From positions 1-59,259 of the IMG/VR virus record IMGVR_UViG_3300045738_001587: DNA of 59,259 bases; one strand, written 5' to 3'. A program made the position numbers and the translations under genes. The notes beneath the pieces are model-generated. The model was given only the letters and a program-made list of their open reading frames with translations, did not search any database and was not told where the DNA came from. Source of the DNA: a virus. Its lineage: Duplodnaviria > Caudoviricetes. Below, piece after piece: positions 1,647-40,951 of this stretch. Numbering within the stretch: the first letter of the stretch is position 1; the number at the start of each line of letters is the position of its first letter.

Positions 1647-1656
1647 GAGAACTATT

Positions 1657-1893: not shown

Positions 1894-1903
1894 GGAGTGT
1901 GCC

Positions 1904-2407: not shown

Positions 2408-2428
2408 TCAGATTAAAATGGAGACAAG

Positions 2429-3022: not shown

Positions 3023-3029
3023 AGGATAT

Positions 3030-3161: not shown

Positions 3162-3224
3162 CTCAGTTGGTAGAGCATCACGTTGACATCGTGGAGGTCA
3201 TTGGTTCAAGTCCAATACTGCCCA
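3152..3224 (+). tRNA. tRNA-Val (anticodon GAC), CCA not encoded
   Basis: Acceptor GGGCAGT/ACTGCCC, anticodon loop TT-GAC-AT, T-arm ATTGG-TTCAAGT-CCAAT. Confidence 0.95.
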
Positions 3225-3281
3225 CTTTGCTTGCATCAGTTTCACAGCTTTGTATTTTAAAGGGTTATAAATTAATATAAA

Positions 3282-13955: not shown

Positions 13956-14423
13956 ATGAACGATAAGATTGAAAACGCTTTGAAAGATCCAAATTTACAA
14001 GGAATAATGAACAAAGCCGCTAGTACCTTTACTAGACAGCTAACTCAAGACGAGATATACACTTGTAAAATTAATGCATTATGGAAGTCATTAAAGCATT
14101 GGGATGAAAGAAAAAAGTCAAAATTTAGTACATATCTCTTTAACGGCGTTAAGTATGAATGTATCAGGGAGCTAAAGTTTAAAAAGAAAAATAAAGCAAT
14201 TGGCGGAAAAGACCTAGACAAGATCCTCGCCAGCCGCGAAGACCATGTTGCCGAAGCTGATATAATTGACGAAATAGACAATTTGCCCTACGCGGAACTA
14301 ATAAAAGACAGGTCTAAAAGCTTCACTATCAACGAGATAGCAAATAGACACGGAATGAACAGAGAATCTACCAGAAGAAGGATAAAAAAATCCGCTAAGT
14401 TGCTGTCTAAGCGGCTGAAATAA
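13956..14423 (+). CDS. Sigma-70 family (compact region 2 + region 4) sigma factor-like protein
   Basis: ALWK....WD..K.SKFSTY (region 2) and C-terminal HTH FTINEIANRHGMNRESTRRRI. Confidence 0.75.
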   Translation: MNDKIENALKDPNLQGIMNKAASTFTRQLTQDEIYTCKINALWKSLKHWDERKKSKFSTYLFNGVKYECIRELKFKKKNKAIGGKDLDKILASREDHVAEADIIDEIDNLPYAELIKDRSKSFTINEIANRHGMNRESTRRRIKKSAKLLSKRLK

Positions 14424-25746: not shown

Positions 25747-26167
25747 CTATACATCCCCCTCTACGGGTGAATACTGCACATGCACGCAATACATAGCTGA
25801 AATCATGTGTACCAGAATGGCGGAAAAGGACAATCAAGGCACGCAGGCCTATAAATTCTGGAACAGCAAAAAGTGGCGGAAAGTCTACGGCTATCAGATC
25901 GTATTGGCAAACCGCCTGTCTAAACAATATTCATGTGCGGCGATAGTTAAAGCCATAAACTCTAAAGAGCTAAAGCACATGTATTCACTGGGTTATCCGG
26001 GTATCCATGAGATAATTCAGAAATATCAAAATATAATTGAGTCTCAAAAGCCCACCGAGACTAATATAATAATACAGGATCAGCCTAAGACGAGATCCGC
26101 TTCTTTCGGTAAAAAGTCACAATTGCAAAGGTTAAGGAATGTTGATGGCAAAGAAAAGAAAGGCTAA
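25718..26167 (+). CDS. Hypothetical protein upstream of recA
   Basis: 149 aa overlapping both neighbours. Confidence 0.7.
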   Translation: MTKERSEKSNYTSPSTGEYCTCTQYIAEIMCTRMAEKDNQGTQAYKFWNSKKWRKVYGYQIVLANRLSKQYSCAAIVKAINSKELKHMYSLGYPGIHEIIQKYQNIIESQKPTETNIIIQDQPKTRSASFGKKSQLQRLRNVDGKEKKG

Positions 26168-27248
26168 CAAATTTGCCGAGGACGCAGTTAGCAGTAGCGT
26201 TGTTTCCACTTATGGAGATGTCGTCAGAACCGGGACGGAAGTCCTTGACAATCTCAACAACCTTCAGATAATCGGTGTCTCCCCAGCCCTAGACATAGCT
26301 CTCGGTGGAGGGTTCAGGGAAGGTAGCTGCGTCGTAATGACGGGAGACCCAAAGAGTGGCAAAACAACGACAGCCCTTCACTTTGCTTCCAAGTGCCAAG
26401 CCTTAGGTAAAAAGGTCATATACATCAACACAGAAGGTCGCCTGTCAGTACAAAACTTTGATGGGATAAAAGGACTACAGGCCGACAAGATTCTTGTAGT
26501 AGAATCAACAGACGACAAAATCCTGTCCGCAGAAGACTTCCTAAATATCATAGAATATTATATCAACAATGATCCAGAATGTGTTATAATTATTGATTCC
26601 ACATCAAACATGGTTCCAAGAGATGAGCTTGAGGGAGAGGTTAGAACCGGAGTGAGAAATGCTCTACCAAGACTGCTATCCATGTTCTTTAAGAGAATAG
26701 GCTCCTCAATAACCAAGAACAAAACCATACTACTGTGTGTCACCCACAATATCGCCAATACCAGCGGAAGCCGATACGCCCCCATGAAAATGGCAGACTG
26801 CGGGAACATGCTTCAGTATCAAGCCGGAACCAACATGGTCATAACACACAGGGGCAAATGGCAGGTTCCAGCGCAAACTGGGCCTCATGTAGGACAAATA
26901 GCGAACTGGGTTATAAAAACATCCAATGCTGGCGGTCTGCCAAACTCAACCGCCGAAAGCTGGATTAGGTACGGCATTGGCGTGGATGAAATTCAGGAAA
27001 TAATCCATATAGCCTGCGAGTTTAGGCTCATCAAGACGGCCGGAGCTTGGTACACAATTCAGTGTGCAATAGACGACAAGGCGTCTCCAATCATAGCCAA
27101 AGTACTCAAAAAGAACGAAATCTCAGAAAAAGAAGAAGACATAGAAAGATTCTTTAAGTTCCAAGGGGTCAACAATCTATGCGATTTCCTCAACGAAAAC
27201 CCCTCTGTTGCTGACTTCATATACCAGAACGTGAAGGAGCTATTTTGA
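26145..27248 (+). CDS. recA: RecA/UvsX-like recombinase
   Basis: ALDIALGGG, Walker A GDPKSGKTT, NTEGR, IIIDS, I.YG.G, AGAWY. Confidence 0.88.
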   Translation: MAKKRKANKFAEDAVSSSVVSTYGDVVRTGTEVLDNLNNLQIIGVSPALDIALGGGFREGSCVVMTGDPKSGKTTTALHFASKCQALGKKVIYINTEGRLSVQNFDGIKGLQADKILVVESTDDKILSAEDFLNIIEYYINNDPECVIIIDSTSNMVPRDELEGEVRTGVRNALPRLLSMFFKRIGSSITKNKTILLCVTHNIANTSGSRYAPMKMADCGNMLQYQAGTNMVITHRGKWQVPAQTGPHVGQIANWVIKTSNAGGLPNSTAESWIRYGIGVDEIQEIIHIACEFRLIKTAGAWYTIQCAIDDKASPIIAKVLKKNEISEKEEDIERFFKFQGVNNLCDFLNENPSVADFIYQNVKELF

Positions 27249-27670
27249 AAGTTATAGGTTTAAACGGTAGAGAATACAATCTAAACCTTTCTAAGTACAA
27301 CGTCTACAAAAATGACAACAGAAAGAGATCCAAGCATCACGTAAGAGCAAGAGAACTCATAAACAAAGTTTACAACAGTTACGGAGTGCTTGAAGAAGTA
27401 AAGTTGCCCGGAAGTACTTCGGCGCACAAAAAGTCCGTACTATATTTAGATTTTTATATACCGAACATACGGATTGCGTTCGAGGTACACGGGCGTCAGC
27501 ACTATGAGCATGTGCCGTTTTTCCATAGAACAAAAGCGGCGTTCATACTGGCCAAGGCGAGAGATGAAGACAAAGCCGAATGGTGTGAACTAAACAACAT
27601 TGAATTGATAATACTTAAATACTCAGGAACAGACAATGAGTGGATTGAAACAATTAAAGGCGTCCGATAG
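27245..27670 (+). CDS. Vsr/DUF559-like endonuclease
   Basis: EE..LP, LYLDFYIP...AFEVHGRQHY, RD..K..WC..N.I.L. Confidence 0.75.
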   Translation: MKVIGLNGREYNLNLSKYNVYKNDNRKRSKHHVRARELINKVYNSYGVLEEVKLPGSTSAHKKSVLYLDFYIPNIRIAFEVHGRQHYEHVPFFHRTKAAFILAKARDEDKAEWCELNNIELIILKYSGTDNEWIETIKGVR

Positions 27671-28112
27671 GCTGGCAGCACACATCGAAAGCGTTGAAGA
27701 ATACATTAACCTTACTAACGTTAAGTATTCTACGTTTAAAGAGGAATTTTTACTTGCAGCAGACATGTCCAGAGACACTATGTCTAAGCTAACCACGCAA
27801 GAACTGTTTGATACAGCCTATATACTGTATGGTTACTCAACCTACATTCAAGACGAAGTGAACAAGAACAGAGTTGTGTTATCGTGGTGTGAAGACCAGA
27901 TTGAAAAACTGGTGGCTTCCAACCTTGCCAATTTTGATCAGTATACCAAGCATAATGTAAAACGCCAAATAATCATAAAGGAGAACAGCTTCGCTTCTAG
28001 TGTTGATTATATGCGGTCTGTTGCGGAGGCTAGGCTGCAATCGTTAGAGGGTAAGGTTTATGAACTAAAACGTCAAGGTGATATCCTATTAGAAAGGGCC
28101 AAAAGATTATGA
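27636..28112 (+). CDS. Helical protein in the recombination module (possibly UvsY-like mediator)
   Basis: All-alpha coiled-coil pattern; position after recA; function is inference. Confidence 0.45.
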   Translation: MSGLKQLKASDRLAAHIESVEEYINLTNVKYSTFKEEFLLAADMSRDTMSKLTTQELFDTAYILYGYSTYIQDEVNKNRVVLSWCEDQIEKLVASNLANFDQYTKHNVKRQIIIKENSFASSVDYMRSVAEARLQSLEGKVYELKRQGDILLERAKRL

Positions 28113-28471
28113 ATCCAGAAGACTTAAGTATTGAAGAACTCCAAGAGCTTCTTAGGAGCAAAATTGAAGAGAGCGAAATTGAAGAGCCTAGCGAGACTGT
28201 TATTGATGACGACTTTACGGTTACAAGAACAGACTCAGTGAATGAGGCAAATAAACAGAAGGTCGAGGCCAAGGATAACACATGGATTGACGAAGGAGAA
28301 CACAAGGACGTAGAGACTCCTGAGTATAAACCAACGACCAGAAATAGGCTCAAGCCCGAGTCGCACAAGGTTAATAGGGTCTGCCACATTTGCGGAAAAA
28401 AGTTTGAAATATCGCCAAGCCTAATCAGCGGTGAATTTACGCGATGCGATAATTGCACAGGAAGAAAATAA
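28109..28471 (+). CDS. Hypothetical protein with C-terminal Zn ribbon
   Basis: CHICG...CDNC. Confidence 0.7.
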   Translation: MNPEDLSIEELQELLRSKIEESEIEEPSETVIDDDFTVTRTDSVNEANKQKVEAKDNTWIDEGEHKDVETPEYKPTTRNRLKPESHKVNRVCHICGKKFEISPSLISGEFTRCDNCTGRK

Positions 28472-28472
28472 G

Positions 28473-29960
28473 ATGGATCAGAATCTAGCAGACGCTGGGT
28501 CAGAAAGAGCCGTTCTTTCGGCCCTGTTTCAGTACGGTATAGAAGCCTACGTTGAAGTCTCTGACATTATAAGCAGCGAAACATTTGGCAGCACTAATAA
28601 TCAAATACTATATAAGTGCGTTGAAAAAGTAATAGAGAGTAATTCCGAGGTTGACATCCCTTCAATACTTTCAGCGGCCTCGCAGATGGGTCACTCGGAT
28701 CGAGTTGAAAGCAAGCAGGAGTTGCAATACATAAAGTCCTTGTTCGATTTTCCTGTCAACAAGGATAACGTGATAAGCTTTGCTCTACAGATAAAGAAGT
28801 ACGAATTTGCCAGAAGGATTAAAAAGCTTACAACAAGAATTCATAAGGATATGGATGGTGTCACCGGTGGCGAATCTATCAACGATATCATATCAATGCT
28901 AGAAGAGCCTGTTATGGATTTCCTCAGGGAAGACGACGCCGGAGAGAGGCCAAAGAAAATTGGCGAAGATGCGTTTGAATACCTAGAATTCCTACAGGAA
29001 AATAAATGCGATATAATAGGCATATCAACAGGCTTCAACAGGTACGACCAAGCGATTGGCGGTGGTCTAAGAAGAAAATGTGTGGACTTAATAGCGGCCA
29101 GACCCAAGGTGGGCAAAAGCGTATTCGCTGATAATGTTGCCATCAACGCCTCATCAAGAGGAATACCAGTTTTGGTTCTAGATACAGAGATGTGTAAAGA
29201 AGACCATCTGAATAGGATTATCGCAAACCTGAGCGGAGTTCCAATCAATGAGGTTTCTACTGGTCAGTTTGTTGATGATGACGAAAAAAATCAGAGAGTC
29301 CACGAGGCAGTTGAGAAAATAGAAGATATACCCTACAGTTACGTCAGCGTTGCTGGCAAGCCATTTGACCAGATATTGAACATTATTAAAAGATGGATCA
29401 TACAAGACGTAAAGCTAGATGAGAACGGAAAAACAAATGACTGTGTGGTTATTTATGATTACCTAAAGCTCATGTCATCTGGCGCTATAACAAACAATAT
29501 TCAAGAGTATCAAGCTCTTGGTTTTCAAATCACATCTCTGCACAATCTATGCGTCAAATATGATTTTCCGTGTCTGTCGTTTGTACAACTTAACAGAGAT
29601 GGAATTACTAAAGAATCAACAGACGCAGTAAGTGGCTCCGATAGGCTCATTTGGCTATGCACTTCATTTTCCATATTCAAATCCAAATCTCCAGAAGAGC
29701 TTGCGGAGGATGGCCCTAGTGCAGGCAATAGAAAGCTAGTGCCAGTTGTAGCTAGGCATGGCGCTGGTCTGTCCGATGGCAATTATATAAACATGCGTAT
29801 GCACGGAGAATTTGCCAAGCTTGACGAATTGCGAACCAGAAATGAGTTTAGAACGCAGCCAGTAGACGACACAGGGCTTATAGACGAGCAGGAATTAGTT
29901 AATGTTAATGAGAGTATAAAAAATGGAACTGAAGAAGATCAAAAAGCTCCTTGGGAATAA
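28473..29960 (+). CDS. dnaB: Replicative DNA helicase
   Basis: ERAVL, GISTGF..D, AARPKVGKS, DTEM, YDYLKL, VQLNR; ATG 28473 preferred. Confidence 0.93.
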   Translation: MDQNLADAGSERAVLSALFQYGIEAYVEVSDIISSETFGSTNNQILYKCVEKVIESNSEVDIPSILSAASQMGHSDRVESKQELQYIKSLFDFPVNKDNVISFALQIKKYEFARRIKKLTTRIHKDMDGVTGGESINDIISMLEEPVMDFLREDDAGERPKKIGEDAFEYLEFLQENKCDIIGISTGFNRYDQAIGGGLRRKCVDLIAARPKVGKSVFADNVAINASSRGIPVLVLDTEMCKEDHLNRIIANLSGVPINEVSTGQFVDDDEKNQRVHEAVEKIEDIPYSYVSVAGKPFDQILNIIKRWIIQDVKLDENGKTNDCVVIYDYLKLMSSGAITNNIQEYQALGFQITSLHNLCVKYDFPCLSFVQLNRDGITKESTDAVSGSDRLIWLCTSFSIFKSKSPEELAEDGPSAGNRKLVPVVARHGAGLSDGNYINMRMHGEFAKLDELRTRNEFRTQPVDDTGLIDEQELVNVNESIKNGTEEDQKAPWE

Positions 29961-30936
29961 CCTAGACTTGGTTCTTTCCGAGCTTGAGATTGAGTATCAA
30001 AAAAACGGTGACAACCTCACCTGTCCATGCCCAGTCCACGAAGGCAGTGACAACCCAAATGGTTTCTCCTTTTCTGTTGATCGGCAAATCTGGGGGTGCT
30101 GGACTAGGGGTTGCCACCAAGAATTTGGTAATGATATACTCGGACTCATACGTGGGACATTATCCATTAAGACGGGAGAGGAAGTGGGATTCCCAAAAGC
30201 GTTGCGGTGGGCGTGTCGGATTCTTAATGTTGATAGCAAAGACGTTCAGGTAAATAAAGAAGAAGAGCCAGACGAGTTTGTCAAGCTGGTGAATATTTTA
30301 TCCCAGAAAGACCCGTCCCACGAGGATTCGTGCGCCATCATAGACTGCGATGTCTCACATCCGTCAGATTACTTTTGCTCAAGAGGTTTTTCAGAAGACA
30401 CCTTGCTGCACTTTGAGGTTGGTGATTGCTTGCAGAAAAAATCCTCTATGGTCAACAGGGCAATAATACCAATACATAACTCAGGCGGAGACAAAATTGT
30501 ATCCTATATTGGTAGGTCTGTCAGGGATTATGTCAAGCCAAAATTCTTGTTTACCAGCGGGTTCAATAAGACGAAGTATTTGTACAACTATCATAGAGCA
30601 AAAGAAAAGATTCATGAGACCTCCTGCGTGTTCTTGACGGAGGGGCAAGGCGACGTTTGGAAATTGTACGAAGCTGGAGTAGAAAATGCAGTCAGCATCT
30701 TCGGGAAGTCATTAAGCTTTTTTCAAAAAAGTATGCTAGAGAAAAGCGGCGCAACCAAACTGGTTGTTTTGACAGACAACGATCAGGCGGGTAGAGAGTC
30801 AAAGGTTAAAATTCAAAGAGAAATGAGCAGGATGTTCAAAGTTATTTTCCCCAGAATGTCCAAAAAAGATATAGGCGATATGACGGCTAAACAAATAAAA
30901 GAAGACATATTACCGCAACTGGAAGGCATGTTTTAA
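29923..30936 (+). CDS. dnaG: DNA primase (CHC2 Zn finger + TOPRIM)
   Basis: CPVH..C...C, RAIIPI, GR, EGQGD, DNDQAG, KDIGD. Confidence 0.92.
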   Translation: MELKKIKKLLGNNLDLVLSELEIEYQKNGDNLTCPCPVHEGSDNPNGFSFSVDRQIWGCWTRGCHQEFGNDILGLIRGTLSIKTGEEVGFPKALRWACRILNVDSKDVQVNKEEEPDEFVKLVNILSQKDPSHEDSCAIIDCDVSHPSDYFCSRGFSEDTLLHFEVGDCLQKKSSMVNRAIIPIHNSGGDKIVSYIGRSVRDYVKPKFLFTSGFNKTKYLYNYHRAKEKIHETSCVFLTEGQGDVWKLYEAGVENAVSIFGKSLSFFQKSMLEKSGATKLVVLTDNDQAGRESKVKIQREMSRMFKVIFPRMSKKDIGDMTAKQIKEDILPQLEGMF

Positions 30937-31682
30937 TGGTTAACATAATAGGGATATCAGGCAAGAAACAATCCGGCAAGAACACTATGGCTAACTATCT
31001 GCATGGAGAAATCCTAAAGAGAACTGGTACTGTGTCAGATTTTGAAATAGATGCAAATGGGTCTCTCATAATTACCACAAGCGTAGACGGAGACGTTGAA
31101 CACGGCGTTTTAGATGTCACCAGAAGAGACTCTCAGTTTACAAGCTATGCCCACGCGCACATGTGGCCCTATGTAAAGCTTTATAGCTTCGCGGACGGAC
31201 TCAAGCAAGTGTGCATGGATTTTTTCGACCTTTCATTTGAGCAGGCATACGGCACAAACGAACAAAAGAATACAGCGTGCCAAGTTTTTTGGGAAGACTT
31301 ACCAACCAAGACTAGCAACAAGGGAAACATGACTGCGCGCGAACTGTTGCAATATTTTGGTACAGATATAATGAGGAAGATGCTCCAAGACGTATGGGTC
31401 AACCATACAATAAAAACAATAAACCGCGAACAAAGCGGATTGGCAATCATCGCAGACATAAGGTTTCCAAATGAAGTAGAGGCTGTCAAGAGAAACAAAG
31501 GCAAGGTCGTAAGGCTAACTAGGGAACTAATCGAAGATAGCCACAGCAGCGAAGTAGCCCTAGACAAAGCAAACTATGATTGGGATAATTTTGATTTTAT
31601 AATCAACAACTCTAAAGGCAGCATAACAAACTTTTGCAAAGAGATAGATAAATTGTTTAACCAATTGGAGGTGGTATGCTAG
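30936..31682 (+). CDS. Deoxynucleoside monophosphate kinase
   Basis: GISGKKQSGK, SFADGLK, ARELLQYFGTD, DIRFPNE, HSSE. Confidence 0.88.
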   Translation: MVNIIGISGKKQSGKNTMANYLHGEILKRTGTVSDFEIDANGSLIITTSVDGDVEHGVLDVTRRDSQFTSYAHAHMWPYVKLYSFADGLKQVCMDFFDLSFEQAYGTNEQKNTACQVFWEDLPTKTSNKGNMTARELLQYFGTDIMRKMLQDVWVNHTIKTINREQSGLAIIADIRFPNEVEAVKRNKGKVVRLTRELIEDSHSSEVALDKANYDWDNFDFIINNSKGSITNFCKEIDKLFNQLEVVC

Positions 31683-32689
31683 TCACTTATATAAGAAGCT
31701 CTAGCTTCAATAACTATTCCTACTGTCAGATGCAGTATTTCCTAACGTATACGCTGGGACATCAATCAAAATCTGGCAAAAAGGCCCAACTTGGGACTAT
31801 AGTACATAAAGTTATGGAAGTCTTGGCAGGATGCCAGCACTTAGTACAAAAAATGAAGAAGATGCTGCTTATTGACGACGCTCTTGGTGAAATTAAATTC
31901 ACGAAGAAAAAGCTAGCAAGCGACGAATTTGTTAATGATATATTGCTAAGGAGCTACGACTGGTATACTAAAAAGTGCGACCATAAATACACAAAAGCAG
32001 ACTATAAATTCTGCAATGAAACCACTTGGGAGGCACTTAATCATAACGACGGACTGTTTGACCCAAGAAACAGAAAGATAGTGGCTGCTGAACCACACTT
32101 TGATATAGTTATAGATGAGCCGTGGGCCAAATATGACTACACCCTGCCAAACGGAGAAAAGCTAGAAGGACAGCTAGCAATAAAAGGAACAATTGATCTT
32201 GTAACTGAGGTAGAGGATGGTATAATTGAAGTAGTTGACTGGAAGACTGGAAAAAGGCTAGACTGGGCCACGGGGGAAGAAAAAACATACGAAAAACTGT
32301 GTGAAGACCCACAACTGCTACTGTACAACTATGCTATCTCCAAGCTATTCCCAGAGTACAAGCAGTCCATAATGACTGTCTTTTTCATCAGGGATGGAGG
32401 CCCATTTTCAATGTGCTTTGATAGCAAGGACAGGGAAAAATTTATGGAAATGCTAAAGCTTAAATTTCAGCAAATTAGCAATAACCAAAAGCCTCAGCCC
32501 CTGTCTCAAACTAGAAATCACTGGAAGTGTACTAAGCTTTGCCACTTTTACAAGAACAAGTGGCCGGGAACAGACCAGAATATGTGTATATATACAGAGG
32601 AACACCTTAAGAAACACGGAATGGAAAAAACCGTGGAAGAGTGTACGGCCAAAGGATTTAGCGTGGGCCATTATGAGGCTCCGGGGTAG
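31676..32689 (+). CDS. PD-(D/E)XK nuclease (Cas4/AddB-like)
   Basis: SS...Y..C, G..VH, GTIDL, VVDWKTG, QL..Y, C-terminal Cys cluster (CTKLC..C). Confidence 0.85.
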   Translation: MLVTYIRSSSFNNYSYCQMQYFLTYTLGHQSKSGKKAQLGTIVHKVMEVLAGCQHLVQKMKKMLLIDDALGEIKFTKKKLASDEFVNDILLRSYDWYTKKCDHKYTKADYKFCNETTWEALNHNDGLFDPRNRKIVAAEPHFDIVIDEPWAKYDYTLPNGEKLEGQLAIKGTIDLVTEVEDGIIEVVDWKTGKRLDWATGEEKTYEKLCEDPQLLLYNYAISKLFPEYKQSIMTVFFIRDGGPFSMCFDSKDREKFMEMLKLKFQQISNNQKPQPLSQTRNHWKCTKLCHFYKNKWPGTDQNMCIYTEEHLKKHGMEKTVEECTAKGFSVGHYEAPG

Positions 32690-32698: not shown

Positions 32699-33238
32699 AT
32701 GATTGAGATAGAAATTACAGAGGAAATGAAGAAGAGGGCATGGGCCAAGTCACGGGAAATGGGAGTCATAAAGAACTCCATTATGAGTGGCGATGGCAAT
32801 ATAGCAGGGTTCTTAGGCGAAGAAGTAGCAAATTCAGTCATAAAAGGTGAGATCAACAACACTTATGACTACGACATCATTACCAAAGATGGTATTAAAT
32901 ATGATGTCAAGACCAAGAGATGCACTTCGCCCCCCAAGCGCTACTATGATTGCTCTGTTGCTAATTTCAACACAAAACAAAAATGTGACAGATACGTTTT
33001 CGTAAGAATAGAAAACAAAAACAATAGATGGGGAAGAGCTTGGGTTCTTGGCTGGCTTGAACACGATGAGTATTTTAGAAAAGCTCGCAAGCTAACCAAG
33101 GGCGAGGTTGACCCTTCTAACAACTTTGTTGTGCGTGCTGACTGTCACAATGTCGCAATATCAGAATTAACTAACTTCACGGGAGAAGAAGATGCTAGAC
33201 TTCATTTACGACAGGAGAAACTTTCTAAGAATAGGTAG
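32699..33238 (+). CDS. Restriction endonuclease-like fold protein
   Basis: GFLGE, YDYD, YDVKTK, D.YVFV. Confidence 0.6.
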   Translation: MIEIEITEEMKKRAWAKSREMGVIKNSIMSGDGNIAGFLGEEVANSVIKGEINNTYDYDIITKDGIKYDVKTKRCTSPPKRYYDCSVANFNTKQKCDRYVFVRIENKNNRWGRAWVLGWLEHDEYFRKARKLTKGEVDPSNNFVVRADCHNVAISELTNFTGEEDARLHLRQEKLSKNR

Positions 33239-34439
33239 CATTGGAGCCGGGATGAGCGCAGTTGGTCTATCTGACTACGCCTTTTCTCAAGATATAGCTC
33301 TGGGCTACAAAGACAAGACCGTCGTCTGGGTATGGCTAGGTGGAGGGCCGACACAGTTTGAAACTTTCCACGCACCCAACGACACGGTTCCCTCAGAGTG
33401 GCAGCCGGTAAACGGGGCTATTCACGACCCCAAGACTAACATAACCCTTGGGGCTGACTGGAAAGAGCTTTCCAAGCATACTAGCAAGTTAAATGTGGTC
33501 AATTCATTTAGCCACAAAGATTCCTCTCACCGTCAGGGGACTCATTTCGTTATGACTGGACATTACAACGCAGATAGAACGACTACCTCTATGGCAGAGC
33601 ATCCGTCTTTTGGGTCTATCGTGTCTGCTTGTTATGGCCCGAGCAACCCAGACAACGGGGTGCCCACCTATGTTAAGCAGGGCAAGATCGAGGGAGACGA
33701 AGGAACTTGGCTTGGAGGGGCATATAAACCCTTTGACCCATCAAACAAAGATAATCTAACCCCACGCATAGAGCTTTCGCGGTTTACAAGCAGAAAAGAC
33801 TTACTAAACGCAATAGACGGAATAAGAATTTCCGGCAACGGGGCCGAGTCCGTAGAATTTTATAAGGGACAAGCTTATGATGTGATTCTCGGCTCGGCAA
33901 AAGACGCCTTTGACCTTGAAAAAGAAGACCCGAAGACCCACGAACTCTATGGGACAGCCGCCATCGGGCAGCAGCTTCTTTTAGCAAGAAGGCTTGCCGA
34001 ATATGGCACAAGGTTTGTAACTATCCATTATGGGGGATGGGACATGCATGGCAACATCTCTAAGGCCATACAGGGCAAAGTTCCGCCCATAGATAAAGCT
34101 ATTTCTGGCTTCCTTCAAGACGTTTGGGATCGTGGTCTAAGTGAAAAAATTATGCTTGTCGTGACGGGCGAATTTGGAAGAACTAAAATCAATGCCAACT
34201 CTGGCAGGGATCACTGGCCTGCAATTACTCCTATGCTCATGGCTGGTGGACAATATCATTCTGGCAGAACCATTGGCACATCAGACCGATCCTACAGCCC
34301 GTTGGACAATCCAGTTGGGCCGCTTGACCTTCAGGCCACACTGTTTGACCATTTTGGAATAGACAAGGACATACAAAGAGTAGACAACGGTGGACGACCA
34401 AGATATTTACTCGAAGGAGAGGCGAAGGTAATCCTATGA
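33192..34439 (+). CDS. DUF1501 domain protein with Tat signal peptide
   Basis: DRRNFL plus hydrophobic stretch; WLGGGP.Q.ETF, PSFGS, GQQLLLARRLAE.G.RFV, GWDMH, D.GL, GEFGRT..N...GRDHW, AGG. Confidence 0.93.
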   Translation: MLDFIYDRRNFLRIGSIGAGMSAVGLSDYAFSQDIALGYKDKTVVWVWLGGGPTQFETFHAPNDTVPSEWQPVNGAIHDPKTNITLGADWKELSKHTSKLNVVNSFSHKDSSHRQGTHFVMTGHYNADRTTTSMAEHPSFGSIVSACYGPSNPDNGVPTYVKQGKIEGDEGTWLGGAYKPFDPSNKDNLTPRIELSRFTSRKDLLNAIDGIRISGNGAESVEFYKGQAYDVILGSAKDAFDLEKEDPKTHELYGTAAIGQQLLLARRLAEYGTRFVTIHYGGWDMHGNISKAIQGKVPPIDKAISGFLQDVWDRGLSEKIMLVVTGEFGRTKINANSGRDHWPAITPMLMAGGQYHSGRTIGTSDRSYSPLDNPVGPLDLQATLFDHFGIDKDIQRVDNGGRPRYLLEGEAKVIL

Positions 34440-34654
34440 TGACGCTTATTCTAAGAAAAGCAGCACTTCTGCTTGGTGTATTTGGTGTCGGTGCGTGGCT
34501 AATGTACTCAGCCCAAAATGGAAATTATGAAAGGCAAGACCTTCTCAAAGGAATAGCCTTGTGGTCACTTATTGGTTCCTTTGGACTATACATATGTTCG
34601 ACGGGATTACTCAAGTTTCATAGTCGAACTGTTGATAGGAAGGATAACCAATGA
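34436..34654 (+). CDS. Small two-TM membrane protein
   Basis: ATGA-coupled at both ends; two hydrophobic helices. Confidence 0.65.
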   Translation: MMTLILRKAALLLGVFGVGAWLMYSAQNGNYERQDLLKGIALWSLIGSFGLYICSTGLLKFHSRTVDRKDNQ

Positions 34655-34974
34655 CAATTAAACTAACAGAATCCGCAGGAGCAGAGGCTAAGAAATATCT
34701 TGAAGATACCGAAGAAAAGTATCTAAGGATTGGCGTGGAGGGCGGTGGATGTTCTGGCTTTCAGTATAATTTAACAGTAGTCGATGACTACGATGAAGAA
34801 AAAGATACACTGTCTCATCAGTATGGCGTAGATGTTATTGTAGACCAGAAAAGCGATCTCTATTTAGATGGAACTGTCTTAGACTACTACAATGATATTT
34901 CCAAACGTGGTTTTACTTTCAATAATCCCAACGCGACAAAAAGCTGTGGATGCGGAAGCAGTTTTCAGGTGTGA
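34651..34974 (+). CDS. A-type Fe-S cluster carrier (IscA/SufA/ErpA family)
   Basis: LRIGVEGGGCSGFQY, LYLDG..LDY, GF.FNNPNA..SCGCGSSF. Confidence 0.95.
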   Translation: MTIKLTESAGAEAKKYLEDTEEKYLRIGVEGGGCSGFQYNLTVVDDYDEEKDTLSHQYGVDVIVDQKSDLYLDGTVLDYYNDISKRGFTFNNPNATKSCGCGSSFQV

Positions 34975-34987
34975 TTTAGGAGAAGTC

Positions 34988-35245
34988 ATGACTTATATAT
35001 ATGAAGACACCAAAACCGGCGAGCTTTACCGCTACTCCAGAAGAGGTGTATACAAAAAGAATGGAAGACCCCTACGGTTCGTAAAAAAAACCAAAGGAAA
35101 CATAATGACTATAGACTTTATAAAAGAAGCTGACGAATTCTTACAGAGAAAAAACAACGCCGACGAGAAGGCTGGATACCCACCCAACTGTAACGAGGGG
35201 TATGTAGAAAAAGACGGAAAATGTGTCCCCAAAACGGACGAGTAA
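34988..35245 (+). CDS. Hypothetical protein, possibly two small genes fused (internal ATG 35105)
   Basis: AGGAG RBS before ATG 34988; second RBS AAGGA before the in-frame ATG 35105; C-terminal PPNCNEGYVEKDGKCVP. Confidence 0.55.
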   Translation: MTYIYEDTKTGELYRYSRRGVYKKNGRPLRFVKKTKGNIMTIDFIKEADEFLQRKNNADEKAGYPPNCNEGYVEKDGKCVPKTDE

Positions 35246-35248
35246 TAC

Positions 35249-36202
35249 ATGATTAAAGTTGGCGTAGTCGGATATGGCACAATAGGAAAACGTGTGGCAG
35301 ACGCTGTATTGTTACAAGATGATATGGAGCTTGCTGGCGTCACAGCAAATACCTACAACTACAAAATAGAATCTGCCATCAGGAAAGGCATTTCTATATT
35401 CCCGATAGAAAAAATACATCTGCTTCTCAATGAAGTTGATATAGTTGTAGACTGCACCCCAAAGGGAGTAGGAGCCGACAATAAAGAGACATACTCTGAA
35501 GCTGGCGTGAAGGCCATATTTCAAGGTGGAGAAAAGCCCGACGTAGGGTTTAGCTTTGTGGCCCAATGTAACTACGACAAGGCCGTTGGAAAAGATTTCA
35601 TTCGAGTAGTTAGTTGCAACACAACTGGATTATGCAGGACGCTGAAGGCGTTAGATTGTAACTATAACATAGACAAGGTACACGCCACGATGATAAGAAG
35701 GGCCGCCGACCCTTGGGATATATATCACGGGCCCATTAATGCCCTTGTTCCACACTTGGTGGTTCCATCACATCATGGGCCGGATGTTAGAACGATCCTG
35801 CCCAAGTTAGAAATATTCACAACTTCCATATCTGTCCCTACCACGTTGATGCATATGCACAGCATAGCGGTTGACCTAAATACTGCTCCCACCGTTGAAG
35901 AAGTTGTAGATTTGTTTCAGAATACAACAAGGGTTCGCGTCGTGCATAATTCCGATGGAATAAGATCGACAGCCGAAATCATGGAGTACGCCAAAGACCT
36001 TGGTAGAGACAGGGGAGACATGCCAGAGGTGTGTGTGTGGAGCGATACTATCGGAGTGTGGGGAAAGAAGTTGTTATATATACAAGCGATTCACCAAGAA
36101 AGCGACGTTGTTCCAGAAAACATCGATGCAATTAGAGCGGCGTTTGATTTATACCCAGCCGCTAGTAGTATACAAAAGACAAACAAAAGTTTAGGCATAT
36201 AA
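35249..36202 (+). CDS. gap: Glyceraldehyde-3-phosphate dehydrogenase, archaeal type (class II)
   Basis: GYGTIGKRVADAV..QDDM, DCTP.G.G, FQGGEK, RVVSCNTTGL, PSHHGPDV, QAIHQES.VVPENIDAIRA. Confidence 0.93.
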   Translation: MIKVGVVGYGTIGKRVADAVLLQDDMELAGVTANTYNYKIESAIRKGISIFPIEKIHLLLNEVDIVVDCTPKGVGADNKETYSEAGVKAIFQGGEKPDVGFSFVAQCNYDKAVGKDFIRVVSCNTTGLCRTLKALDCNYNIDKVHATMIRRAADPWDIYHGPINALVPHLVVPSHHGPDVRTILPKLEIFTTSISVPTTLMHMHSIAVDLNTAPTVEEVVDLFQNTTRVRVVHNSDGIRSTAEIMEYAKDLGRDRGDMPEVCVWSDTIGVWGKKLLYIQAIHQESDVVPENIDAIRAAFDLYPAASSIQKTNKSLGI

Positions 36203-36231
36203 TTTTATTTAAGGTGTTGGAGATTTGTTTT

Positions 36232-36702
36232 ATGATAAATACATTAAAATATTTTTGTGCGGTACTAATATTGTCAGCGATCCCCACCAGCCCCTTAGTT
36301 GCTCAACAACCAAAAGAGGTTGACCTACAGATAGAGATAAGCAAAACCATTCAGGCTATTAGGGCTATCACGAAGCCAACAGAATCGCCTTATCGCCCCG
36401 CGCTTATTCATCAGTTCAGAAACTTAGAATATTCTCCAGCCGCCAGAGAGCTTGCCGTTGCCCGTAGGCGAGCATCGCTAGACGGCAGGTTCCTCGGTCA
36501 AATGAGAGGCGTCGGTTATCGACCCATCATTTCCTTTTTTCCTCAGGGAGACATGATGACGGTTGGGCCAGTGATAGTTTCACCAGATCGTAGGTATGTA
36601 CGAATAGGAATTTCAGCGGCTAGAACGGGAATCGGCCACGTCTACACCTTCAACTTCTCTACCGGAGAATATCGAAGGCTAGATAATGGAGGCAATAAAT
36701 AA
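36232..36702 (+). CDS. Exported protein with a secretin-like C-terminal beta motif
   Basis: Signal peptide-like N-terminus; GYRPII...PQG......VSPDRRYVRIG......IG.V.TFNF. Confidence 0.55.
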   Translation: MINTLKYFCAVLILSAIPTSPLVAQQPKEVDLQIEISKTIQAIRAITKPTESPYRPALIHQFRNLEYSPAARELAVARRRASLDGRFLGQMRGVGYRPIISFFPQGDMMTVGPVIVSPDRRYVRIGISAARTGIGHVYTFNFSTGEYRRLDNGGNK

Positions 36703-36995
36703 TGAAGTTCCTTAAACTTGCAATGTGCCTACTGTTCATCCTTTCCGTGGCAAACCTTGGCTTCTCTTGTTATATGTATAAGGAGCTTAAGAAAACACCT
36801 GTAATAGACATAGACTTGCCACAGATAAACGCCTTTCGTGGGGAGTCTGCGCAAAGAGACGCCTTTTTGTTCCAAGCAAACCTCATGACCCACCATCGGC
36901 TAGGAATACATGTTCCCGGATCACAAAACATGTGCCCAATGTGCAATACAGAACTTGATCAAGGCACAGAAGCTTTAAAAATTACGGGAAATTAG
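36702..36995 (+). CDS. Membrane-anchored hypothetical protein with His/CxxC motif
   Basis: TAATG coupling; N-terminal TM; HH....H.......CPMC. Confidence 0.65.
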   Translation: MKFLKLAMCLLFILSVANLGFSCYMYKELKKTPVIDIDLPQINAFRGESAQRDAFLFQANLMTHHRLGIHVPGSQNMCPMCNTELDQGTEALKITGN

Positions 36996-37016
36996 TGTTG
37001 AACCCGACAGTTTTGA

Positions 37017-37027
37017 CTATAATATAG
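37017..37027 (+). promoter_or_regulatory. Putative -10 element (CTATAATATAG) upstream of the polymerase genes
   Basis: TATAAT at 37018-37023 in an intergenic gap. Confidence 0.5.
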
Positions 37028-37085
37028 TGACGACGGTCAATCTTGTTGTCATTTTAATATTGAAATTAACTTTGAAGGATCTACT

Positions 37086-38720
37086 ATGGATTGGGCTCCG
37101 CTCTGCAACTATACTCACTATAGCTTACTCAAGGGCTTTTCTAAGCCATCCCAGCTCGCCCAAAAATGCAAAGAGAACGACTACAAGGCCTGCGGAATTG
37201 CAGACTATAAATCAATCTCTGGGGCCGTGAGCTTCTTTCAGTCGTGCATCAAGCATGGCATCAAGCCAATTATTGGCTGTTCTTTTGATGGATTCACGCT
37301 CTTTGCTAAAAGCAAATCAGGGTGGCTCGATCTCATTCAACTTGTATCCTCTATAGGAGAAGACGGGAACCTTAATAGCCACGTTTTAAATGATGTGTGC
37401 CGCCGTGGGAATCTTATTTCTATCTCCGAAACTGAGCAAACCTCACCCATAAAGGGTGAAGACTTTTACGCTAAGACGCCAGCGTTGATGGACACATATT
37501 ACACAGAAAAGAAGGACGCTCCGCTGCATAGGGTTTTGCTTTGCTCGAAATTAAAAACAACGCTCCCGAAAATCAACAAAGCTCTTTCCAAAAATGAAGA
37601 CTTTGAGTTTAGGGAGTTCTTTGAACGCAACGACTTTCATCTGAGAGATTCGGTAGAAATATGCGAAATCCTCACTGAGGACAGAGAGCTAAATGTCAAA
37701 AAAATTATTGACAAGTGCGAGGACTACGACATCCTAAGCAAGCCAATGCTTCCAAAGTTCACAACCCCCACCGGAGCGTCAGAAGAAGAATATTTGAAAG
37801 AACTATGCAGGCACGGCTGGGTCGAACTTCTAGCAGAAAACGGAAAGGTTACCAACGACGAAGACAAAGAAAAATACCTAGAAAGATTCACAGAGGAATT
37901 CAGGGTAATTAAAGAAGCAAATCTCTTTGGTTATTTCTTAATTGTTAGAGATATCATTAGCTTTGTTAATAGCAAGGGCTGGCTATCAGGGCCGGGAAGA
38001 GGCTCTGCCGCCGGGTGCTTAATTTCCTATCTGGTGGGCATTACAAAGATTGACCCAATTGAGTACGGGCTTTTGTTTGAGAGGTTCTATAATAGTGGTA
38101 GAAACACAGATGACCATGTCTCCCTGCCGGACATTGATATTGATGTTCCCGGTAACAAAAGAGATGAGATCATCGAATACTTAAAAGACACATACGGGAA
38201 GCACAATGTTAGCCAGATGGTCACCTTTGGCAGACTGCAAGGCAGAAGCGCCATAAAAGAAATACTAAGAATTAACGAGGCTTGCTCCTTTGGGGAGATG
38301 AACGAAATCTCTAAAAGCATACCAAATGAATCCGACGTATCTGACCAGCTTCAGGCTATGGACGAAGAGGACAGGTCTATAATCAAATTCGCTCTCCTTG
38401 ACAACCCAGAAGAACTGAGAGATTATTGCTATGTAACAGAAAAGGGCAGGCTAGAAGGAGATTACGCAGAATACTTTGAGCAGGCCATCAGGATTGAGGG
38501 TACGTTTAAAACTCAAGGTAAGCACGCCGCAGGAATTGTTATATCGTCTGACCACCTATATAATGTTTGTCCTATGGTAAACCAGAAAAGCGGATCAGAA
38601 AAAATCGCAGGATTAGAAATGGCCGACCTCGAAAGCTTGGGCCATGTCAAGTTTGACATACTAGGTATTAATCTCCTAGATAAGATTATGAAAATTGAGG
38701 AACTATTAAATGTCGTATAG
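37086..38720 (+). CDS. dnaE: DNA polymerase III alpha (DnaE), N-terminal part: degenerate PHP, palm, thumb
   Basis: HYSLL, GIKPIIG, YFLIV.D, GPGRGSAAG, LLFERF, PDIDID, GKHAAG, KFDILG, then stop. Confidence 0.93.
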   Translation: MDWAPLCNYTHYSLLKGFSKPSQLAQKCKENDYKACGIADYKSISGAVSFFQSCIKHGIKPIIGCSFDGFTLFAKSKSGWLDLIQLVSSIGEDGNLNSHVLNDVCRRGNLISISETEQTSPIKGEDFYAKTPALMDTYYTEKKDAPLHRVLLCSKLKTTLPKINKALSKNEDFEFREFFERNDFHLRDSVEICEILTEDRELNVKKIIDKCEDYDILSKPMLPKFTTPTGASEEEYLKELCRHGWVELLAENGKVTNDEDKEKYLERFTEEFRVIKEANLFGYFLIVRDIISFVNSKGWLSGPGRGSAAGCLISYLVGITKIDPIEYGLLFERFYNSGRNTDDHVSLPDIDIDVPGNKRDEIIEYLKDTYGKHNVSQMVTFGRLQGRSAIKEILRINEACSFGEMNEISKSIPNESDVSDQLQAMDEEDRSIIKFALLDNPEELRDYCYVTEKGRLEGDYAEYFEQAIRIEGTFKTQGKHAAGIVISSDHLYNVCPMVNQKSGSEKIAGLEMADLESLGHVKFDILGINLLDKIMKIEELLNVV

Positions 38721-39387
38721 AGATTATATTGTTTTTGACTTTGAAACTGGGTCTAGAAACCCGCAAAAAACACAGCCGACACAGATCGCCGCACTAGCTC
38801 TGGACGGCAGGAACTTTAGGCTTAAGGGAACTTTTAATAGTGAAATTAGGCCAATCATAGACGACGAAAAAGCCATTAAGGCTGGCTTAGACCCGTTGGA
38901 AGATGAAGCCCTCAGAATCACAGGCAAGACGAGGAAAGCGTTAGCTAAAGCCCCGCTGCCCAAAACGGTATGGAAAAAGTTTGAAAACTTTGTAAACCAA
39001 TACAACTGGAAGGGCACACAGTTTTTTGCTCCCATTCCAGCGGGGTTTAATATTATTGGTTTCGACATGATTATCGTAAATAGAATGTGTGAACAATATG
39101 GCTCATACGACAAAGAAAGACAGCAGCAAAAGATATTTAACAAGATTTACAAAGTTGACATGATGGACAATATGTTTATGTGGACTGAGGGAGACCCGTC
39201 CATCAAGTCTATAAGCATGGACTCATTAAGAGAACGAATGGGCCTAAGCAGCGAAAACGCCCACGATGCCCTACAGGACGTTAAAGACACGGCAAATATT
39301 ATGATTAAATTTATGAAGACTCACAGGGCCGTGTATCGTAACTTAAAAATTGACAAGGCTTTTGCGGACGGCGAATTATATGTCTAA
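38710..39387 (+). CDS. DEDDh 3'-5' exonuclease (DnaQ-like)
   Basis: FDFETG (ExoI), FN...FD (ExoII), HDALQD (ExoIII). Confidence 0.9.
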   Translation: MSYRDYIVFDFETGSRNPQKTQPTQIAALALDGRNFRLKGTFNSEIRPIIDDEKAIKAGLDPLEDEALRITGKTRKALAKAPLPKTVWKKFENFVNQYNWKGTQFFAPIPAGFNIIGFDMIIVNRMCEQYGSYDKERQQQKIFNKIYKVDMMDNMFMWTEGDPSIKSISMDSLRERMGLSSENAHDALQDVKDTANIMIKFMKTHRAVYRNLKIDKAFADGELYV

Positions 39388-40951
39388 AGAAATAGATTAT
39401 AAGTGCGAAGAAACATGGAGCTTGTTCCACGAAGGAAGAACTAAAGGTGTTTTCCAGCTTGAGAGTAACCTAGGAAAGTCTTGGTCTAGAAAGCTCAAGC
39501 CCAGCAACATAGAGGAACTCGCGGCGCTGGTTGCCCTTATCAGGCCGGGATGTCTCAAGGCTATATCCAACGGAAAGTCTATGACACAAAGATACATCGA
39601 CAGGAAGAATGGATCGGAAAAGGTTGAGTATCTACACGACGCACTGGAGGACATTTTAAAGCCCACTTATGGTGTTCTTGTATATCAGGAACAATCTATG
39701 AGAATAGTCCAAAAACTTGCTGGTTTTGACCTCAAAGATGCCGACATACTACGAAAGGCTATCGGGAAAAAGAAAGCTGGCTTGATGGCAAAAGTAAAGC
39801 GGTCTTTCCTAAAGGGCGCAGCCAGTAAAGAAATTGTTACAAGTGAAGAAGCCGAAGAAATCTTTAGTTGGATTGAAAAGTCCAGCAGATACTCGTTCAA
39901 TAAGTCTCACGCCGTAGCATATGCAATATGTTCCTTCTGGAGTGCCTTCTACAAGGTTCATCACACTGAACAATTCTTTCTTGCTTATCTGTATCATGCC
40001 AACGAAAAACAGGACACACACGAAGAAGTATATGAATTGGTTTCCGACGCGAAGCTTTTTGATATAAAAACCAAGACTCCAAACATAACAAACTTCTCTG
40101 AAAAGTTTAATATGTCAAATGGATCAATATATTTTGGCGTCAAGGACGTTAAGTCGCTGACAGGAAAGACCGGCGACAAGGCCATAGCCGCCGTCAAAGA
40201 GCTTTCGTCCCAGCTAGGCAAGAGCGCTAAGAGCTTCAGTTGGCTAGATATACTCATCAACCTAACCCCCAAAATAAACGCCACGGCGTTCAAAGCTCTG
40301 GCTTCCATTGGATTTTTCAGAGGGTTCAAAGATAAGATAACAAGGAACAGAGCCCTTTATGAGTACGAGATATACAGGAGTCTAACCAAGGCCGAAGTGC
40401 GATGGATTGAAGAAAACTACAGAATCCTTAAGTGGAGAAGTTTAATCGACTGCCTGATTGACTTGGCCCCAGTAAAGAAGGAAGGCGGCGGCACTAGCAA
40501 GGAAGCTAGGTCAGAGGCAGTAAGAAATGAAATACATTTTCTCGAAAACCCACCTTACGACCTTTCCGATGACCCAAGCTGGATTATAGAACAGGAAGTA
40601 AAGTTTTTGGGATGCCCCGTTTCAATGTCAAAAATAGAAGCGGCAGATATTTCTGGCGCTAATACCACCTGTAAAGAAATAGCCGAAGGGAAAAATGGAA
40701 AAAGCCTTCTGGTGGCTGGAAACATAAAAAGAGTATCAAACTATAAGATTAAAAAGGGGAAATCAAAAGGAGAATATATGTCCTTTCTAACCATAGAAGA
40801 CGACACATGCACCTTAGATAGTGTCGTTATTTTCCCAGATTGTCGCAAAAAGTTTCAATATTCTTTATATGAAGGGAATAACTTACTGTTTAGCGGATCT
40901 GTCTCAAAAGAAGATAATTCCCTAATTGTTAATAACATTTTTGAGATTTAG
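39380..40951 (+). CDS. dnaE: DNA polymerase III alpha (DnaE), C-terminal part: fingers, HhH, OB fold
   Basis: GVFQLES, ALIRPG, TYGVLVYQEQ, LRKAIGKK, YSFNKSHAVAY, K.G..M.FLTIED; ATG 39380. Confidence 0.93.
   Translation: MSKEIDYKCEETWSLFHEGRTKGVFQLESNLGKSWSRKLKPSNIEELAALVALIRPGCLKAISNGKSMTQRYIDRKNGSEKVEYLHDALEDILKPTYGVLVYQEQSMRIVQKLAGFDLKDADILRKAIGKKKAGLMAKVKRSFLKGAASKEIVTSEEAEEIFSWIEKSSRYSFNKSHAVAYAICSFWSAFYKVHHTEQFFLAYLYHANEKQDTHEEVYELVSDAKLFDIKTKTPNITNFSEKFNMSNGSIYFGVKDVKSLTGKTGDKAIAAVKELSSQLGKSAKSFSWLDILINLTPKINATAFKALASIGFFRGFKDKITRNRALYEYEIYRSLTKAEVRWIEENYRILKWRSLIDCLIDLAPVKKEGGGTSKEARSEAVRNEIHFLENPPYDLSDDPSWIIEQEVKFLGCPVSMSKIEAADISGANTTCKEIAEGKNGKSLLVAGNIKRVSNYKIKKGKSKGEYMSFLTIEDDTCTLDSVVIFPDCRKKFQYSLYEGNNLLFSGSVSKEDNSLIVNNIFEI

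Follow-up and report, generated by a model that had tools for sequence, protein, structure and literature searches.

An intact type II GAPDH gene in the window

The stretch of DNA analysed here, called the window, is a linear IMG/VR virus record (IMGVR_UViG_3300045738_001587) of 59,259 b, which CheckV estimates to be 37% complete. Positions 35249-36202 of its plus strand hold an open reading frame (ORF) for a type II (class II, archaeal-type) glyceraldehyde-3-phosphate dehydrogenase (GAPDH), which is the subject of this study. In the ORF listing of the window, this ORF starts with ATG, encodes 317 aa, and contains zero internal stops. The four motifs singled out in a preliminary description of the window were all found in the translation, namely GYGTIGKRVADA (residues 8-19), VVSCNTTGL (120-128), PSHHGPDV (173-180), and HQESDVVPENIDAIRA (282-297). 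The protein matched the NCBIfam type II GAPDH model NF003251 over its full length (residues 1-317) with 441.3 bits against a cut-off of 185, and TIGR01546, again over the full length, with 420.5 bits against 232.9, whereas the type I GAPDH models of NCBIfam yielded merely 21-30 bits against cut-offs of 367-662. Pfam recognized the GAPDH C-terminal domain at 91 bits. The top sequence matches in PDB were four archaeal GAPDHs with E-values of 1e-82 to 1e-104, i.e. 2czc_A (3.6e-104), 1cf2 (1.6e-101), 1b7g, and 2yyy. By its motifs, NCBIfam scores, and archaeal PDB matches, the protein is therefore what the preliminary description had called it, a class II GAPDH in a phage-like genome.

An AlphaFold2 model built from a 46-sequence alignment had a mean predicted local distance difference test score (pLDDT) of 90.1 and a predicted template modeling score (pTM) of 0.90. 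Foldseek aligned this model to 1cf2, 2czc, 1b7g, and 2yyy with template modeling (TM) scores of 0.93-0.94 (1cf2_O, E 1.7e-45 and TMq 0.94; 2czc, 0.93), and to type I GAPDHs with about 0.75. The structural alignment gave 54% identity to the GAPDH of P. horikoshii. The catalytic pair of class II enzymes, according to PMC12041015, consists of Cys140 within S-C-N-T and the activating His219 (1cf2 numbering). These residues correspond to Cys123 and His202 of the window protein, and both were invariant in 85 out of 85 aligned rows. Cys123, Asn124, His175, and His202 were found in 25/25 phage rows, in which the SHHGPD segment was invariant as well. Score, catalytic residues, and fold confirmed that ORF 35249-36202 is an intact type II phosphorylating GAPDH.

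It is very improbable that the GAPDH fold serves another phosphorylated or acidic aldehyde substrate, or a non-catalytic role. One bacterial type II protein, that of P. thermosuccinogenes, had no GAPDH activity in extracts according to PMC6543838, and part of the phage enzymes have a phage-only 14-residue deletion and, in some, a truncated C-terminus. Opposed to this are scores far above equivalog cut-offs that were built on characterised archaeal enzymes, the identity to the P. horikoshii enzyme, the invariant catalytic Cys, His, and SHHGPD, and the location of the closest cellular relatives in an aldolase gene cluster, in some cases with phosphofructokinase (PFK).

The gene is part of the phage DNA

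A gap of 3 bases separates the GAPDH gene from the upstream ORF and one of 11 bases separates it from the next ORF, on the same strand. It is flanked by exonuclease, primase, and DnaB genes upstream and by DnaE downstream, all on one strand. Its GC content (0.443) and its GC content at third codon positions (GC3, 0.440) agreed with those of 49 other genes in the window (0.421±0.030 and 0.432±0.051, respectively).

Thirteen IMG/VR contigs contained a GAPDH copy 64-82% identical to that of the window. All 13 loci, and a contig binned as 'SAR202', had at least four further genes in common with the window. The latter contig (C13 of metagenome-assembled genome (MAG) G001, 64 kb) gave 42 BLASTP matches to window ORFs, was wholly syntenic with it, and carried rIIA (phrog_612, 431.6 bits). 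Among 67 loci from the metagenome scan, 32 were at least 64% identical, and one of the 32, L083, was cellular and situated on an archaeal-type chromosome. Among the other 31 loci, 19 had at least two further genes of the window or C13, five had one, and seven had none. Six of these seven were on contigs of at most 4.7 kb, and the seventh (L072, 9 kb) had three genes in common with the IMG/VR contig G303. Altogether, 25 distinct phage-family GAPDH sequences were obtained from IMG/VR, JGI, Tara, and ENA contigs. The dN/dS ratio was 0.051-0.066 in four pairs with dS <1.2, indicating strong purifying selection. With viral genes on both sides, conservation in related phages, and purifying selection, the GAPDH gene fits an auxiliary metabolic gene (AMG).

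A 16.9-kb contig of run X1, which may be the source sample, covered 34882-38000 with 0 differences. When public-run contigs were compared to 33000-38000, a contig of the independent run X2 bridged the 3' junction; no piece bridging the 5' junction was among the X2 pieces listed. The window was derived from a metagenome assembly, and archaeal DNA could in principle have been joined to a phage contig by assembly or binning. Such an artefact is hardly credible in view of the phage-like composition, the 25 distinct sequences within one phage family, the junction-spanning contigs, and the tight one-strand packing of ORFs. The assembly chimera against which the preliminary description had cautioned was thus ruled out, and the gene belongs to the phage DNA, as judged by its GC3, its recurrence on many contigs of the same family, and contigs across the junctions.

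The nearest cellular relatives are DPANN-type archaea

A maximum-likelihood tree (IQ-TREE, LG+C20 with posterior mean site frequencies (PMSF)) was inferred from 64 rows, 21 near-duplicate archaeal rows having been left out beforehand; branch supports are given as ultrafast bootstrap/SH-aLRT. The 25 phage-family rows formed one clade (100/99), comprising 18 rows with phage context shown and seven on short or unclear contigs, among them NCBI MAH50627.1, which is labelled Pacearchaeota. DPANN-type rows were found in a clade of 13 (98/95) and in a second group of five (100/96), and all DPANN-type and phage rows were united at 100/99. The genome scan for cellular relatives returned 38 loci. Thirty-seven of them were archaeal-labelled, the closest being DPANN-type MAGs with 54-63% identity, and the 38th was the phage contig C13 with 69%. 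Of the top 120 proteins scored from 5.8 billion, those with an organism name were from DPANN archaea only.

Closest to the phage enzyme among cellular proteins (54-64% identity) are the chromosomal GAPDHs of DPANN type (L016-L025, L083), whose MAGs bear the labels Woesearchaeota, Nanoarchaeota, Pacearchaeota, and 'Methanosarcinales'. Besides falling in one clade, the two groups share a residue other than Lys at position 33 and a 'Y-N-Y' segment after it. The DPANN-type enzymes differ in having the long form, low GC3, and chromosomal synteny with no phage genes nearby. In seven distinct loci, L083 among them, an aldolase-like gene was directly upstream of GAPDH; PFK was upstream in three loci, and a MiaB-like gene was downstream. 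The contig of L083 measures 446 kb and also carries GlmM and MiaB-like-B genes of archaeal type.

Bacteria also possess type II-like GAPDHs. In the class of the SAR202 MAG (G001), nine of 301 genomes passed the TIGR01546 cut-off, one through a phage contig and eight others. We fetched five chromosomal type II genes of Dehalococcoidia (L126-L130). They belong to the same superfamily and have, like the phage GAPDH, the catalytic Cys and His and Ala at position 33 (5/5), but the second His of SHHGPD is replaced by Gln in them, and they were 43-44% identical to the window protein, and formed a separate long-branch clade. The Dehalococcoidia carriers (G117, G184, G214, G281, G294, and others) represent a separate bacterial GAPDH-II-like family. 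Dehalococcoidia chromosomal type II GAPDH was rejected as the source based on this identity and the separate clade.

These comparisons bear on ordinary host capture, in which the bacterial host lineage would have a close type II GAPDH of its own, perhaps obtained earlier from archaea. The eight non-phage genomes above the TIGR01546 cut-off are in its favor, and a divergent copy could be overlooked by a pattern-based genome scan. Nevertheless, host capture is quite unlikely, given the distance of the five Dehalococcoidia genes, the names among the top 120 proteins, and the presence of at least one further phage-contig gene in 24 of the 31 loci of at least 64% identity other than L083. The six-pattern genome scan revealed no close copy in any bacterial genome; the sole bacterial-labelled close match was a phage contig from a MAG that possesses its own type I GAPDH. 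The close relative in the host lineage that the preliminary description had named as grounds for abandoning its proposal was accordingly not encountered. Since the nearest cellular relatives are DPANN-type archaea, and the phage sequences form one clade that joins them in the phylogeny with the Dehalococcoidia sequences apart, the cross-domain origin proposed in that description is the best reading.

Bin labels and the host of the phages

The 'SAR202 cluster bacterium' MAG (G001) had a type I GAPDH of its own on another contig. Since C13 is wholly syntenic with the window, the 'type II GAPDH' of this MAG is viral contamination of the bin. The same MAG, to which locus L015 belongs, contained contig C7 with DUF1501 genes 76% and 36% identical to that of the window (described below), and C7 is probably a second phage contig. 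No DUF1501 relative at E<=1e-20 was present in the 300 other genomes of the class. SAR202 was dropped as a lead to the donor or the host, as L015 is a phage contig and the type II GAPDHs of the class are distant; on the host question, this evidence is neutral. Two NCBI proteins labelled 'Candidatus Pacearchaeota archaeon' also belong to phage-lineage families. One is a GAPDH (P0076, MAH50627.1) inside the phage clade, and the other is a DUF1501 protein (P0218, CMI37_01545) 64% identical to that of the window. This makes it probable that their contigs (10-11 kb) are phage DNA. The MAG labels of DUF1501 and GAPDH relatives conflict and were for this reason not used for host assignment.

If the phages were viruses of marine DPANN-type archaea (Pacearchaeota or Woesearchaeota), of a DPANN-host consortium, or of other archaea, no cross-domain step would be needed, and both the GAPDH and the Pacearchaeota labels would be host-derived. 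The DPANN-type nearest relatives and the two Pacearchaeota-labelled proteins are compatible with an archaeal host, and so is a tRNA gene of the window. Three tRNA genes, Glu-TTC, Ile-TAT, and Val-GAC, lie within 988-3225, and a TAT anticodon is unusual for a cellular tRNA-Ile, although some DPANN archaea also use it. On the other side, DnaE, DnaB, the DnaG-like primase, and RecA (PF00154) are of bacterial type and accompanied by a sigma-like ORF, the best rIIA matches listed with a named host were phages of bacteria, PhoH is present, and the GC3 of the phages (0.43) is far above that of the DPANN-type loci (0.17-0.33). Moreover, bin labels count for little, since further contigs of the family were binned as SAR202 and Crocinitomicaceae. 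We consider an archaeal host very unlikely; if true, these phages would be the first example of a large tailed virus of archaea with a replisome of the DnaE/DnaB/RecA type. In a milder version, the host may be bacterial and the phages may have sampled the DNA of episymbiotic archaea directly, which would imply contact between host and DPANN cells.

Loss of Lys33 and a short form of the enzyme

The preliminary description had suggested that the enzyme could shift glycolytic flux toward NADPH for ribonucleotide reductase (RNR) and sugar synthesis. Lys33 correlates with NADP use in class II GAPDHs, as stated in the review PMC12041015, which cites Charron et al. 2000. In the window protein, position 33 is Ala, in a local T32-A33-N34-T35 segment without positive charge. 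In the alignment of 85 rows, Lys33 was present in 35/35 other archaeal rows, 0/20 DPANN-type rows, and 0/25 phage rows. The DPANN-type rows had Ala, Gly, Val, or Ser at this position (20/20) and the Dehalococcoidia rows Ala (5/5), while Ala was found in 22 of the 25 phage rows and Ser, Leu, or Tyr in the remaining three. Positions 34 and 35 (N34 and T35 in the window) were likewise uncharged in most phage rows.

An NADP-dependent enzyme of the kind suggested would accord with the class I RNR and the many sugar-nucleotide enzymes of the phage, and the characterised class II GAPDHs use NADP or both cofactors (PMC12041015 and PMC12965863). Ala33 in place of Lys33 and the uncharged positions 34-35 point the other way, and we regard this reading as unlikely. 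The sequence leans against NADPH, Lys33 being a correlation and not a measurement; this residue distinguishes the NADP-preferring members and is no criterion of the fold. With Lys33 missing across the whole DPANN-type and phage clade, the proposed role in NADPH supply was not supported, and a diversion of flux "toward NADPH for RNR" is a guess.

The window GAPDH (317 aa) is a short phage form, as the archaeal enzymes have 331-345 residues. A 14-residue deletion between residues ~52 and 56 was present in 14 of 25 phage sequences and in 0 of 60 cellular ones. In archaeal enzymes, the missing residues form a helix-strand excursion of the cofactor (N-terminal) domain, and the AlphaFold2 model had a pLDDT of 93-94 across the deletion junction. 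The short form was found in two subclades with long-form sisters, indicating that the deletion arose twice or was exchanged. The subclade of L072-L074 and P0076 was also devoid of the last ~12 residues at the C-terminus.

Proposed role in the infected cell

Taken together, we estimate a probability of roughly 70% that this gene is a conserved phage AMG for a working type II GAPDH, acquired once from a DPANN-type lineage, that provides a host-independent step in the infected cell. The enzyme would catalyze GAP + Pi + NAD(P)+ <-> 1,3-bisphosphoglycerate + NAD(P)H (GAP, glyceraldehyde 3-phosphate). Its carriers would be large uncultivated marine tailed phages with a bacterial-type replisome and a sigma-like factor, presumably infecting bacteria. 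In the donor, a Nanoarchaeota/Woesearchaeota-like lineage of DPANN type, the gene would have been a chromosomal housekeeping gene behind an aldolase-like gene, sometimes also with PFK. Following a single entry into the phage family, it would have acquired the base composition of the phage, taken up several positions, and lost the 14-residue segment in part of the family. The infected cell would gain a GAPDH step beyond the control of the host enzyme, presumably of type I, and of its regulation, and carbon would be kept moving via the triose-phosphate node to nucleotides, energy, and the sugar-nucleotide/glycosyltransferase gene set. Independence from host regulation, which the preliminary description had also proposed, is plausible.

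In which direction the enzyme would run is less certain. We give about even odds to an NAD-preferring enzyme acting mainly in the oxidative (glycolytic) direction, which is favored by the loss of Lys33 and by the PFK-aldolase-GAPDH clusters of the donors. The reductive (gluconeogenic) direction, which would feed hexose and pentose phosphates, is somewhat less probable. It is favored by the large sugar-nucleotide/glycosyltransferase load and by the need of pentose for DNA, and characterised archaeal GapII is gluconeogenic, in Haloferax with a tie to the sugar supply for glycans (PMC11023807).

Several observations weigh against the role and origin proposed here. The grouping of the phage clade with the 13 DPANN-type rows had 94/82, a moderate support for nesting, and an approximately unbiased (AU) test did not reject one clade of all 18 DPANN-type rows (p 0.296), so the phage clade is either nested in the DPANN-type rows or sister to them. 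The direction of transfer would rest on the root and on the wider distribution among archaea. Six peptide patterns served to scan genomes for cellular relatives, and a divergent bacterial copy could escape them. The MAG labels on contigs of the phage family (SAR202, Pacearchaeota, and Crocinitomicaceae) are in conflict. Phosphoglycerate kinase (PGK) was found in 0 of the 4 related viral records searched, which are 15-43% complete, and no RNA run with the sequence was among the runs listed. The inactivity of the P. thermosuccinogenes type II protein means that annotation is no guarantee of activity. Finally, the evidence on direction is conflicting, with the loss of Lys33 and the donor context on one side and the sugar genes and Haloferax GapII on the other.

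Comparison with known enzymes and viral genes

The phage protein has the same fold and catalytic residues as the archaeal type II GAPDHs of M. fervidus (1cf2), P. horikoshii (2czc), S. solfataricus (1b7g), and M. jannaschii (2yyy), as well as the same SCNTT and SHHGPD segments and HQES...PEN...DAIRA C-terminal helix. Unlike them, it is encoded by a tailed phage, has Ala for Lys33, and bears the 14-residue deletion; its identity to the solved enzymes was 44-54%.

Phage AMGs of central carbon metabolism include talC, zwf, gnd, and CP12 of cyanophages. Similar to these, the phage GAPDH is a cellular enzyme under purifying selection among viral replication and nucleotide genes. However, the other central-carbon AMGs are usually of the host's own type, whereas the affinity of the phage GAPDH is to a different domain from that of the replication genes.

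GAPDH genes are reported in giant viruses and, by annotation, among the AMGs of archaeal proviruses in a 2025 preprint (bioRxiv 10.1101/2025.11.27.691053), and the latter may overlap with the phage clade. No description of a phage-encoded class II GAPDH was found in the literature searched. Zero PHROGs families matched GAPDH, and the viral structure library BFVD contained no GAPDH-like structure (best TM 0.51). INPHARED gave one type II GAPDH match, the unannotated human fecal sequence MT839732.1 (4,065 b, 39% identity), which may stem from a methanogen virus or be a mis-called contig.

The cross-domain origin and the phage-specific minimised form of a type II GAPDH are the unusual aspects of this gene. 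AMGs are normally read as copies of host enzymes, and in this family of widespread marine phages the ancestry of the GAPDH points to DPANN-type archaea and the replication genes point to a bacterial host. If the proposed origin is true, it documents gene flow from episymbiotic archaea into bacteriophages, adds the GAPDH step to the nodes taken over by phages, and offers a naturally minimised, probably NAD-linked class II GAPDH for biochemistry. With phage contigs binned as SAR202, Pacearchaeota, or Crocinitomicaceae, genome databases can also acquire spurious 'archaeal-type GAPDH in bacteria' or spurious 'DPANN' genes.

Gene content of the window and the phage family

Nearly all long ORFs of the window are on the plus strand. 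A replication/recombination module (26139-32689, plus strand) was syntenic with all related GAPDH-bearing phage contigs. It consists of RecA (26139-27248, PF00154 match), DnaB (28431-29960), a DnaG-like primase (29923-30936; phrog_47, E 3.9e-50), a dNMP kinase (30936-31682), and an exonuclease (31676-32689), each on the plus strand. DnaE was encoded in two parts, also on the plus strand, the PHP and NTPase part at 37086-38720 (PF07733, 231.9 bits) and the finger/helix-hairpin-helix (HhH) part at 39350-40951 (finger domain, 161 bits), with a DnaQ-like exonuclease between them (38710-39387, plus strand). The same three-gene order of a split DnaE with an exonuclease in between was seen in G302 (L136 16013-19998). 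A sigma-factor-like ORF (13956-14423, plus strand) had sub-threshold matches to Sigma70_r2 (19.7 bits) and r4 (15.6 bits) in the correct order, and its homologue in contig C13 was 49% identical. Thus, among the bacterial-type replication genes listed in the preliminary description, DnaE, though split, DnaB, and a DnaG-like primase were recovered, and the sigma factor was a sub-threshold match only.

The nucleotide genes of the window comprised the large and small subunits of class I RNR, dUTPase, dCMP deaminase, and the dNMP kinase. The window also encodes PhoH, and two exonucleases are part of its replication/recombination set. Its sugar and glycan set included at least seven glycosyltransferase-like genes, a DegT aminotransferase, an epimerase/dehydratase, a UDP-glucose/GDP-mannose dehydrogenase, a mannose-6-P-isomerase-type cupin, and a PfkB-like kinase. 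Two radical-SAM/SPASM proteins were encoded at 9422-10273 and 19675-20679.

No structural genes were found in the window; relatives on other contigs carry some. The IMG/VR contig G303 had a GAPDH fragment at one end together with a large terminase (phrog_2, 82 bits) and a weak match to a portal protein, and its structural region contained a single 3,779-aa ORF (L134 8320-19659). An Amidase_2 endolysin was found in 0 of the 4 related viral records, which are 15-43% complete. A close cultured phage was not found in INPHARED, in which DnaE reached at most 34% and rIIA at most 37% identity, and a family assignment was impossible. The distance of these matches indicated an uncultivated lineage of large tailed phages, whose genome size we estimated at ~150 kb.

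Neighbouring genes and position of the GAPDH gene

The GAPDH gene lies in an accessory island of DUF1501, IscA-type, and small-protein genes between the nuclease and DnaE genes. Domain, synteny, and motif comparison yielded no evidence of the island neighbours acting with GAPDH. The first gene of the island (33192-34439, plus strand) encodes a DUF1501 protein of the alkaline-phosphatase/sulfatase-like superfamily (Pfam PF07394, 221 bits), and its translation has an RR-type N-terminal signal, RRNFLRIG...AGMSAVGL, that resembles twin-arginine translocation (TAT) signals. The DUF1501 gene adjoins an IscA-like gene and GAPDH in related phage contigs too. Relatives with 59-89% identity were highly abundant in marine metagenomes, where clusters reached 366 members and contigs 150 kb, and the DUF1501 gene may be a better marker of the phage family than GAPDH.

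A small hydrophobic ORF of 72 aa follows (34436-34654, plus strand; 52% identical to L062 7109-7321), and next to it is an IscA/ErpA-type Fe-S cluster assembly protein of 107 aa (34651-34974, plus strand; Pfam PF01521, 76.9 bits), which was 75-85% identical in L003-L009, L059, and L062. This carrier may serve the two radical-SAM/SPASM enzymes and be unrelated to GAPDH. The small ORF at 34892-35245 (plus strand) has the C-terminal motif AGYPPNCNEGYVEKDGKCVP and was 82% identical in L062; its translation probably begins at the Met at ~34988, past the IscA stop. This ORF had no Pfam match above threshold (TIL_2, 16.9 bits only), and the idea that it is a CP12-like partner of GAPDH was dropped based on this and the absence of any resemblance to CP12. 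The Cys-pair motif AGYPPNCNEGY(V/I)E..GKCVP was common to window 34892-35245, L062 7967-8269, L073 9489-9974, L074 9474-9965, and L137 3032-3652, and L073 and L074 had a second, similar C-x-C(L)P unit. The Cys-pair-motif gene was just upstream of GAPDH in four contigs, including L073 and L074, where it was directly adjacent. A different small ORF (~114 aa, 55-82% identical among contigs) was directly upstream of GAPDH in L072 (5738-6082), L062 (9661-10008), L075 (797-1273), L093, and L104.

Downstream of GAPDH, an ORF with a signal-peptide-like N-terminus (36214-36702, plus strand) and a small ORF with an N-terminal hydrophobic segment (36702-36995, plus strand) had no family match. A homologue of the former (84%) was directly upstream of GAPDH in L070. 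The GAPDH gene itself was found in different places: in the window and L062 it follows DUF1501-IscA, in L002-L007 and L075 it immediately precedes PhoH, in C13, L010-L014, and L069 it has dCMP deaminase on one side and three small genes on the other, and in L073 and L074 it follows an aminotransferase. These several positions across phage subgroups indicated that the gene has been resident long enough for shuffling within the family.

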